DNA of 64,000 nucleotides from Alphaproteobacteria bacterium (GCA_017939155.1 JAGAZZ010000006.1:7564-71563); one strand, 5' to 3'; shown: positions 13,614 through 13,803, counted from the first letter of the stretch. The notes: generated from the sequence alone by a model not told the origin. A program made the numbers and translations.

Positions 13614-13618
13614 CCTTG

Positions 13619-13652
13619 CACCTCCTTTCTGCAAATTTGCGGAAAGAAGTTG
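13619..13652 (-). promoter_or_regulatory. SD-sequestering hairpin in the toxin copy 2 leader
   Basis: The mRNA reads CAACTTCTTTCC-GCAAATTTGC-AGAAAGGAGGTG. CTTCTTTC pairs with GAAAGGAG (one G-U), burying the SD. Confidence 0.5.
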
Positions 13653-13721
13653 AAAACTCAATTTTTACCCACTATATCAAATTAGCTTGACATTTAGATA
13701 ATTATGAGCTATACTTCCAAT

Positions 13722-13803
13722 ATCTGGTAAGGAAGTTCACACACAACTTCTTTCCATTGTTGGAACAAGTCCTGCGATTCGTGGTCGCCGGACTTTTCTT
13801 TTA
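13722..13803 (+). ncRNA. Antitoxin-like small RNA, copy 2
   Basis: Promoter TTGACA (13687-13692), 17 nt, TATACT (13710-13715). It has the hairpin GGAAGTT-cacacac-AACTTC, the AACTTCTTTCC motif (13745-13755), and the terminator AGTCC..GCGA-ttcgtgg-TCGC..GGACT plus TTTTCTTTT. It is fully antisense to the toxin 5' UTR. Ends are approximate. Confidence 0.55.

Follow-up and report, generated by a model that had tools for sequence, protein, structure and literature searches.

A bistable toxin mRNA leader with dinQ/agrB-type logic and an overlapping antisense RNA, predicted in a type I toxin-antitoxin-like family of uncultured gut Alphaproteobacteria

In the dinQ/agrB system of Escherichia coli, translation of a toxin is controlled at a distance: pairing of sequence 2 with sequence 3 of the dinQ mRNA corresponds to the open state, pairing of sequence 3 with sequence 4 closes the Shine-Dalgarno sequence (SD), and agrB RNA, once it has bound the sequence 2 region, causes the SD to close (PMC5066626). 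This mechanism was shown by selective 2′-hydroxyl acylation analyzed by primer extension (SHAPE) and in vitro translation, and the duplex is cleaved by ribonuclease III (RNase III) (Kristiansen et al. 2016, PMC5066626). In timP/TimR of Salmonella, the toxin mRNA adopts mutually exclusive folds without nucleolytic processing, and the small RNA (sRNA) shifts the balance to the inactive one (Eleftheraki and Holmqvist 2024, PMC11228461). Here we analyzed a 64,000-nucleotide (nt) stretch of DNA (the window) from an Alphaproteobacteria bacterium (GCA_017939155.1, JAGAZZ010000006.1:7564-71563), for which an earlier note had proposed a three-element switch in a toxin leader around positions 13614 to 13800. 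We conclude, with moderate confidence, that the locus is a type I toxin-antitoxin-like cassette with a bistable switch as its toxin mRNA leader, in which an overlapping antisense RNA probably decides which of two pairings an anti-SD element takes. The model of the earlier note is the best-supported reading, and it corresponds to the known dinQ/agrB mechanism in a new, unrelated family. No new principle is opened by it; a known mechanism is rediscovered in an undescribed family.

The region from 13000 to 14220 contains three tandem cassettes, each with a minus-strand open reading frame (ORF) of 20 codons that encodes a very hydrophobic peptide (13039-13101, 13551-13613 and 13920-13982 for copies 1, 2 and 3, respectively; all coordinates are those of the window, and the elements were read directly from the sequence). 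A TTGACT-17-TATAA(A/G) promoter precedes a leader of approximately 170 nt in each cassette, which also has an intrinsic terminator. Inside each leader, there is a near-consensus promoter on the plus strand, followed approximately 80 nt further on by a terminator hairpin and a T-run. These plus-strand promoters are TTGACT-17-TATACT at 13314-13342 in copy 1, TTGACA-17-TATACT at 13687-13715 in copy 2, and TTGACA-17-TATAGT at 14055-14083 in copy 3. Judged by sequence, the cassettes are built like a type I toxin-antitoxin locus.

Relatives were found by a scan with the E1-hairpin motif (E1 is described below) and with a profile of a 23-amino-acid (aa) peptide family encoded behind similar leaders, while BLASTN with the cassette within the genus returned few relatives only. 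Approximately 78 peptide matches were detected in 32 of the 283 genomes of the order, in 10 of its 24 genera and with up to 11 matches per genome, and the cassette is one of approximately 80 related type I toxin-antitoxin-like loci in these 32 genomes. The lineage consists of uncultured gut Alphaproteobacteria, with metagenome-assembled genomes (MAGs) from Hadza and Nepali people, mice, and deer, and the genome from which the window derives carries two further such loci (C34 and C6). The relatives encode a peptide with the consensus MxNLIKVLSIxILVLKIIIIILK, and the 20-aa peptide of copy 2, MVKIITIIKIILELIIALWA, and its variants are likewise small, hydrophobic and of the membrane type, as is usual for type I systems. 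The occurrence is also typical of such systems, being patchy and multicopy, with three copies in tandem here. In Pfam and NCBIfam there was no match for the toxin peptide, and an Rfam search at the gathering score or with E values up to 10 retrieved no known antitoxin beyond sub-threshold SymR noise on the terminator. Having no match in these three databases, the family is an undescribed one. All family-wide comparisons below refer to 48 nonredundant units with complete leaders.

In copy 2, the toxin ORF (13551-13613, minus strand) is predicted to encode a single hydrophobic helix and is followed by the mRNA terminator, a GC hairpin with a U-run (13506-13543, minus strand), identified by inverted repeats and folding. 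The mRNA promoter TTGACT-17-TATAAA is located at 13800-13828 on the minus strand, and a leader promoter with a match of at least 9/12 is present in 42/48 units. The predicted mRNA start is at approximately 13793, and the transcript would begin with a 5′ hairpin (13762-13794, minus strand) that mirrors the sRNA terminator. On the plus strand, the sRNA promoter at 13687-13715 matches the consensus at 11/12 positions, and a −35 box TTGAC[AT] as well as the terminator T-run are each conserved in 47/48 units. The predicted antisense sRNA (13722-13803, approximately 80 nt, with predicted ends) folds as two hairpins at −27.6 kcal/mol (z-score, −3.8), namely hairpin 1 (AAGGAAGUU/AACUUCUUU, loop CACACAC) and the terminator hairpin with its U-run. 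It is perfectly complementary to the first 67 to 73 nt of the toxin mRNA, comprising the 5′ hairpin, a linker, E1, a loop, and the element E1′. In silico, the locus thus shows a hallmark of type I systems, in that a separately promoted and terminated sRNA gene is encoded antisense to the toxin mRNA.

The switch elements of copy 2 were found in the sequence at the positions given by the earlier note. The SD (GAAAGGAGGUG on the minus strand), which reads GAAAGGAGGTG as the reverse complement of 13619-13629, lies 7 nt 5′ of the ATG at 13613-13611. Since the MAG lacks a 16S gene, the 16S 3′ tail GGAUCACCUCCUUUC was taken from the 16S 3′ ends of three genomes of the genus; the copy 2 SD matches this tail perfectly over 11 nt, and E2 and E1 imitate the 16S tail and the SD, respectively. 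E2 (CAACUUCUUUCC, minus strand; plus strand 13641-13652, GGAAAGAAGTTG) is the anti-SD element and can pair with E1 over 12 base pairs (bp) or with the SD over 8 bp. E1 (GGAAAGAAGUUG, minus strand; plus strand 13744-13755, CAACTTCTTTCC) is the SD look-alike, or anti-anti-SD, and is located inside the sRNA target. Together, E1 and E2 constitute a 12-nt inverted repeat that is 100% complementary over a distance of 91 nt, so the perfect pairing noticed earlier was real, and it is one base longer than the 11 bp then given. The local E2:SD hairpin with one G-U pair at 13619-13652 was also as described: CUUCUUUC pairs with GAAAGGAG over 8 bp, an inner 3-bp stem GCA/UGC with its loop forms the apical part (13630-13640, minus strand), and the energy is −13.1 kcal/mol. 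The 11-mer GGAAAGAAGTT has five exact occurrences in the window, all of them within the cassette; at up to 1 mismatch there were 10 matches versus 2.5 expected, and 10 was reached in 0 of 100 shuffles. The pairing of the elements is well beyond chance.

Two further elements had been overlooked, and the switch comprises at least five elements instead of three. E1′ (AACUUCC, 13731-13737, minus strand) follows E1 after 7 nt and is its local partner in the closed state; it is invariant and 98% paired. E1″ (GGAAGU, 13713-13718, minus strand) is the downstream partner of E1′ in the predicted open state, in an invariant helix that is 83% paired, and it overlaps the −10 and the start region of the sRNA.

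On this basis, we propose a model in which the mRNA alone would be poised between an open and a closed fold. In the open state, the pyrimidine element E2 would pair with the purine element E1 approximately 90 nt upstream; this long-range helix would enclose E1′:E1″ and a middle hairpin, and the start region would be free. In the closed state, E2 would fold onto the SD, spacer, and AUG just downstream, and E1 would pair locally with E1′. The sRNA, by forming a duplex over the 5′ 67 to 73 nt of the mRNA, would withdraw both E1 and E1′ and leave E2 only the start region, so that translation would be blocked at a distance. RNase III, which is encoded in the genome, would cut the long duplex and sever E1 permanently.

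The parallel with dinQ/agrB is close: the anti-SD element (sequence 3; here, E2) has two alternative partners, an upstream element (sequence 2; here, E1) and the SD (sequence 4); the antisense RNA targets the first of these, at a distance from the SD; and the toxin is a hydrophobic peptide of small size. Mutually exclusive anti-SD pairings of this kind, with the antisense RNA on the upstream element, are supported here by sequence, covariation, and thermodynamic prediction. There are also clear differences. We found no sequence relationship, in line with the lack of Rfam, Pfam, and NCBIfam matches. While agrB is encoded apart from dinQ and shares approximately 34 nt with it, the sRNA described here is a true cis-antisense RNA of the first 67 to 73 nt of the mRNA, located within its first ~75 nt on the opposite strand. 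Furthermore, the fourth element of dinQ is at the 5′ end and is removed by processing at +44 for activation, whereas here the competitor of E1, E1′, is found downstream and can pair alternatively with E1″. With E1′ located 3′ of E1 and provided with this second partner, 5′ processing would not be required. In this respect, the leader is closer to timP, with its alternative folds that need no processing ("structural processing"). Active timP, however, needs a pseudoknot between two stem-loops instead of the nested long-range helix predicted here, and TimR is not a long cis-antisense RNA of the mRNA 5′ end.

The alternative pairings are supported by covariation. One toxin family is encoded behind five leader types, in which E1 and E2 change jointly and the SD (CUGAAAGG) remains constant. 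The E1/E2 pairs are GGAAAGAAGUUG/CA(A/G)CUUCUUUCC in type I, GAAAGGGUUAAACCC/GGGUUUAUCCCUUUC in type II, AGGAAGUUGA/UCAACUUCCU in type III, AGAAGAGUUAAACUCAC/GUGAGUUUAAUAUCUUCU in type IV, and AGAAGGGUUAAACCU/AGGUUUAUCCUUUCU in type V. Duplexes between the E1 and E2 zones had a mean energy of −22.3 kcal/mol for cognate and −15.6 kcal/mol for non-cognate combinations, versus −9.2 kcal/mol with shuffled E2, and the energy matrix was block-diagonal by type (I × I, −19.9, versus I × II, −13.0; II × II, −23.7, versus II × I, −10.7). In type I, the 10-nt E1:E2 core was fully paired in 25/28 units, and the helix extends into the variable loop of the E1 hairpin, which covaries with the 5′ flank of E2 (0 of 10,000 permutations reached the observed value; pairs 66:161 and 67:160 show CG, AU, and UA). 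The type I structure-pair count supported both helices against shuffles. The MAFFT alignment misplaced E2 in the three window-type rows, and covariation has to be read with the caveat that the units are related and each leader type may have a single origin. A compensatory change was detected even within the window: in copy 1, E1 (GGAAAGAAGUUC, reverse complement of 13370-13381) ends in C and E2 (GGACUUCUUUCC, reverse complement of 13280-13291) begins with G, while copies 2 and 3 have G and C, meaning that their terminal G-C pair is a C-G pair in copy 1.

Other helices of the leader covary as well. In the hairpin between E2 and the SD, the inner stem homologous to GCA/UGC varies in relatives (pair 183:191: CG, 13; GC, 6; GU, 3), and the middle hairpin flanking the sRNA −35 is represented by GGCAU/AUGCC, GACAU/AUGUC, UACAC/GUGUA, and CGCAU/AUGCG. 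E2, together with the sequence flanking it on the 5′ side, closes over the 3′ half of the SD, the spacer, the AUG, and the first codons in the 23-aa family (−10 to −21 kcal/mol), and 85 to 94% of the alignment cells of this closing hairpin are paired. According to these predictions, the closing target is the start region as a whole, and in most relatives E2 would cover the spacer and AUG instead of the SD proper.

E1 and E2 form an inverted repeat in the DNA, and they could in principle be a protein site, the product of gene conversion between the arms, or a chance repeat, with no RNA switch involved. We consider this extremely improbable. Throughout the E1:E2 duplexes we counted 761 Watson-Crick pairs, 59 G-U pairs, and 8 A-C mismatches, and this excess of G-U over A-C on the mRNA strand argues that RNA pairing, not a DNA inverted repeat, was selected. 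Moreover, the position relative to the promoters, SD, and sRNA is kept in 48 units of five sequence types, and the chance expectation was far exceeded.

We then turn to the energies of the two folds. With each helix enforced, the copy 2 leader had −55.9 kcal/mol in the open and −55.4 kcal/mol in the closed state, and the copy 3 leader −65.3 versus −57.6 kcal/mol. Thus, the two states of copy 2 are nearly equal in calculated energy, and copy 3 is predicted to favor the open one. The minimum free energy folds of the whole mRNAs were closed (E2:SD) in copy 2 and open (E1:E2) in copy 3, with z-scores of −8.4 and −10.3, respectively. Across the family, the open helix dominated the free leader in 29/48 units at predicted equilibrium. 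Cofolding with the cognate sRNA yielded the full intermolecular duplex together with the E2:SD hairpin in both copies 2 and 3. Masking of the sRNA target lowered the probability that the SD is unpaired, which was 0.76 in copy 3 and 0.24 in copy 2, to 0.01 in both. Since most relatives have a closing helix over the spacer and AUG and not over the SD, the start region and its pairs with E2 were measured again: in the 48 units, masking increased the expected number of E2:start-region pairs from 6.2 to 12.9 (p ~8e-12). Folding of the mRNA with its sRNA thus gave the outcome that the earlier note had anticipated, as the hairpin between E2 and the start region was always obtained, by cofolding or by masking.

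Several observations weigh against the proposed switch. As a family mean, masking left the accessibility of the SD hexamer unaltered (0.51 versus 0.49) and had no effect on an 8-nt SD window in the full-length mRNA (0.468 versus 0.472), and the mean unpaired fraction of the entire start region in the 48 units decreased only from 0.43 to 0.37. In type II, the closing helix is on the spacer and AUG, and GAAAGG is left in the loop. In 19/48 leaders, including that of copy 2, the closed fold is at least as good as the open fold without any sRNA. In the covariation analysis, a control in which the type I register was slid by +1 scored as high as the true register, because homopurine and homopyrimidine runs can slip, and the argument for pairing is not built on this structure-pair count. 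The E1:E1′ stem never varies; being invariant and also required for the hairpin of the sRNA itself, it provides no independent support. In addition, both transcripts and their ends are predictions, so that transcription of both is presumed, as is the toxicity of the peptide. Finally, E2 is transcribed before the SD, and the nascent mRNA would therefore be born open, which suggests extra layers of control, such as promoter interference or 5′ attenuation.

The strength of the closed fold in many leaders also fits a time-delayed scheme of the hok or AapA kind, in which the nascent mRNA is trapped closed and slowly refolds or is processed to the open form, and the sRNA mainly destroys the latter. 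The switch would then uncouple transcription from translation instead of relaying sRNA binding. Beyond the 19 units with an equal or better closed fold, this scheme could draw on the E1:E1′ hairpin, the first to form during synthesis, on the metastable SD-sequestering hairpins documented for aapA3 (PMC6733600), and on the structural processing documented for timP (PMC11228461). We nevertheless regard it as fairly unlikely. Folding of growing prefixes showed E1:E1′ first and then a switch to E1:E2 once E2 was complete, before the SD emerged, with E1 keeping an unpaired GGAAAG toehold for E2, and the open fold dominates at equilibrium in the majority of units given above. The scheme is compatible with the relay model and does not exclude it.

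In a second alternative, control would rest essentially on degradation: RNase III would cut the 67- to 73-bp duplex, and the pairings of E1, E2, and the SD would merely tune basal translation. Indeed, the duplex is long and perfect, the enzyme is encoded, and type I systems commonly involve cleavage by it (PMC11228461; PMC5066626). What degradation leaves unexplained is that all leader types have E1 within the sRNA target and that it coevolves with E2, and a cut in the duplex would free E2 to close the start region anyway, so that both routes converge. We judge this alternative to be unlikely.

The earlier note also pointed to the E2 sequence in the sRNA and to possible cross-talk among the copies through the shared motif. 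The E2 sequence is indeed present in the sRNA, and this is no independent observation: an RNA antisense to E1 carries the complement of E1, and E2 is that complement, so that its presence is automatic in a cis-antisense overlap. If the motif acted in trans, the sRNA of any copy could block the SD and AUG of its own or of other copies. Duplexes between sRNA and start regions of −14 to −18 kcal/mol are possible for both cognate and non-cognate pairs, orphan units with the sRNA only exist (the upstream unit of L008, L031, and L036/L047), and copies 1 and 3 share the terminator hairpin and the E1 core, with −75 to −86 kcal/mol. On the other hand, the fold of the sRNA buries the E2-like motif in the 3′ arm of hairpin 1, and the rival cognate duplex reaches −125 to −146 kcal/mol. 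Perfect complementarity spans 66 to 86 nt for cognate pairs versus 5 to 23 nt (median, ~12) for co-resident non-cognate pairs, in which loops and 5′ hairpins are copy specific; a few apparent non-cognate values of 72 to 86 nt were due to one unit being counted twice via nested ATGs. The exception among co-resident copies is that copies 1 and 3 of the window have a common terminator hairpin besides the E1 core. Genomes with 5 to 7 units mix leader types. Such a copy-specific pattern looks like selection for discrimination and not for cross-talk, and regulation in trans is very unlikely. From the earlier proposal, the alternation of E2 between E1 and the SD, with sRNA binding to E1 passing E2 to the SD, was thus supported by covariation in five leader types, near-isoenergetic folds, and cofolding or masking, while its three-element form, its interpretation of the sRNA motif, and the cross-talk were not.

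The similarity of E1 to an SD allows still another explanation, namely that E1 is a ribosome standby or loading site that is occluded by the sRNA, as in tisB/IstR-1. E1 resembles the SD (GAAAGAAG versus GAAAGGAG) and lies approximately 100 nt upstream of the start, which is where IstR-1 acts in tisB according to the account in PMC5066626. However, E1 is base paired in both predicted states, with E2 or with E1′, and would never be a free landing pad; moreover, ribosome binding does not explain the coevolution of E1 with E2. A standby site at E1 is hence highly improbable.

Other type I systems share single features with the switch proposed here. In AapA/IsoA of Helicobacter pylori (PMC5416894, PMC6733600), one toxin mRNA has several anti-SD stretches, and SD-sequestering hairpins are backed by covariation. 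Unlike the sRNA described here, IsoA overlaps with the start region and ORF; a 5′-3′ long-distance pairing, relieved by 3′ trimming, keeps the mRNA inert, and the antisense target contains no anti-anti-SD. A long structured 5′ untranslated region is also found in TisB/IstR-1, ZorO/OrzO, and ShoB/OhsC of E. coli, with an antitoxin that acts approximately 100 nt upstream of the ribosome binding site, but their antitoxins are divergent without overlap (T1TAdb paper) and 5′ processing is required; in addition, tisB relies on a ribosome standby site. The gene arrangement of Ldr/Rdl and Hok/Sok is similar to that of the cassette, but these systems work by translational coupling of the toxin ORF to a leader ORF (mok, ldrX) that overlaps the antisense target, whereas 0/48 leaders contained an ATG ORF that had an SD and at least 12 codons. 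Frames opened by the UUG inside E1 differ widely in length. In BsrG/SR4 of Bacillus subtilis, as summarized in PMC5066626, distant binding of the antitoxin tightens SD sequestration, and RNase III cleavage occurs in addition; that system is Gram positive, the interaction is at the 3′ end, and there is no anti-anti-SD element.

The leader and sRNA may together represent a portable regulatory chassis, in which at least five mutually orthogonal E1/E2 "address" types have been recombined with at least three unrelated toxin peptides. We offer this as a tentative reading, with less than an even chance of being correct; the three peptides are MVKIITIIK... in the window, the KVLSI family, and MIIKIIIVIRK... 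in G032. The third of these was detected at L010 (G032:C1, 193500-194150), where two tandem units with a type II-like leader (E1, AGAAAGGGUUAAACCC; E2, GGGUUUCCCCUUUCG; SD hairpin, CCUUUCG/CGAAAGG) encode the unrelated 20-aa peptide MIIKIIIVIRKLRIFLSVKK, suggesting that one regulatory chassis serves different peptides. If this reading is true, a single 1.5-Mb genome could accommodate up to approximately 11 copies that do not regulate each other, as natural, orthogonal, and processing-independent riboregulators. More generally, the family would add a well-defined type I toxin-antitoxin family to uncultured gut Alphaproteobacteria of humans, mice, and deer, and it would show that the dinQ-type logic, in which an antisense RNA closes the SD at a distance, arose independently outside enterobacteria. 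The covarying E1/E2 types would serve as natural compensatory mutants for the mechanism and are a possible source of orthogonal RNA switches.

The sRNA terminator and the toxin mRNA promoter overlap, the former with its U-run and the latter with its −10 hexamer (13796-13805; 14160-14169), and the promoters of the sRNA and mRNA converge at a distance of approximately 75 nt. Furthermore, in many relatives a U-run follows the 5′ hairpin in the mRNA sense too. Together, these three features suggest promoter interference and early termination as extra control layers.

The other two cassettes of the window have the following organization. Copy 3 (13920-14192, minus strand) comprises the ORF, the SD (13988-13998), E2 (14009-14020), E1 (14111-14122), and the mRNA promoter (14164-14192), with the sRNA terminator on the plus strand at 14132-14161, downstream of the sRNA promoter given above. 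The earlier statement that the arrangement is kept in copy 3 was correct, with elements at 14111-14122, 14009-14020, and 13990-13998. Copy 1 (13039-13451, minus strand) has a degraded SD, GGAAC, at approximately 13263-13272, in addition to its ORF, E1, and E2, and the sRNA terminator is located at 13390-13419 (plus strand). A structured insertion of approximately 155 nt (~13105-13262) separates its toxin ORF from the degraded SD. Another species of the genus (G020; L007, G020:C6) carries the same form, and a copy-1-type leader is found at a contig end in G008 (L006, G008:C114), which argues that the insertion is old and maintained and not a fresh disruption. A related element, with 72% identity, is located at 14371-14472.

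Variant units were also found among the relatives. At L103 (G032:C1, ~125100-125700), a different insertion of approximately 115 nt is present at the same place as in copy 1, between GCTGAAAG and the ATG, and supplies its own AAGGAG SD and an in-frame N-terminal toxin extension of 24 codons. The gap between the SD and ATG appears to be a recurrent insertion point. At L077 (G020:C6, ~98000-98300), a deletion joins the 5′ hairpin straight to E2, and E1, E1′, and the sRNA promoter are gone. The mRNA promoter, E2, the start region, and an intact ORF are retained, which corresponds to a toxin gene without an antitoxin gene. This would be tolerable if E2 alone holds the start region shut, and L077 fits the proposed mechanism. 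The orphan units mentioned above (the upstream unit of L008, G034:C1, ~72225-72400; L031; L036; and L047) lack E2, the SD, and the toxin ORF, with the promoters of the mRNA and sRNA and the 5′ and E1 hairpins retained; they could still produce an sRNA.

Complete cassettes were additionally detected on contigs labeled "Eubacteriales" or "Bacteroidaceae" (L019, L022, and L068 on CAVGVF...; L023 and L042 on CAVKTH...; L043 on CAVIDY...). These labels are probably wrong, as at least one of the contigs (CAVGVF010000008.1) appears to be G245:C8, from a genome of the window's own family.

Upstream of the cassettes, there are two small hydrophobic ORFs on the plus strand at 12645-12722 (25 aa) and 12746-12976 (76 aa), which begin with M-x-KIIT... 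and for which the Pfam search gave no significant match. Elsewhere in the window, at 39063-39408 (plus strand), we identified a two-piece (permuted) gene for an alpha-type transfer-messenger RNA, with a score of 235.9 bits against RF01849.

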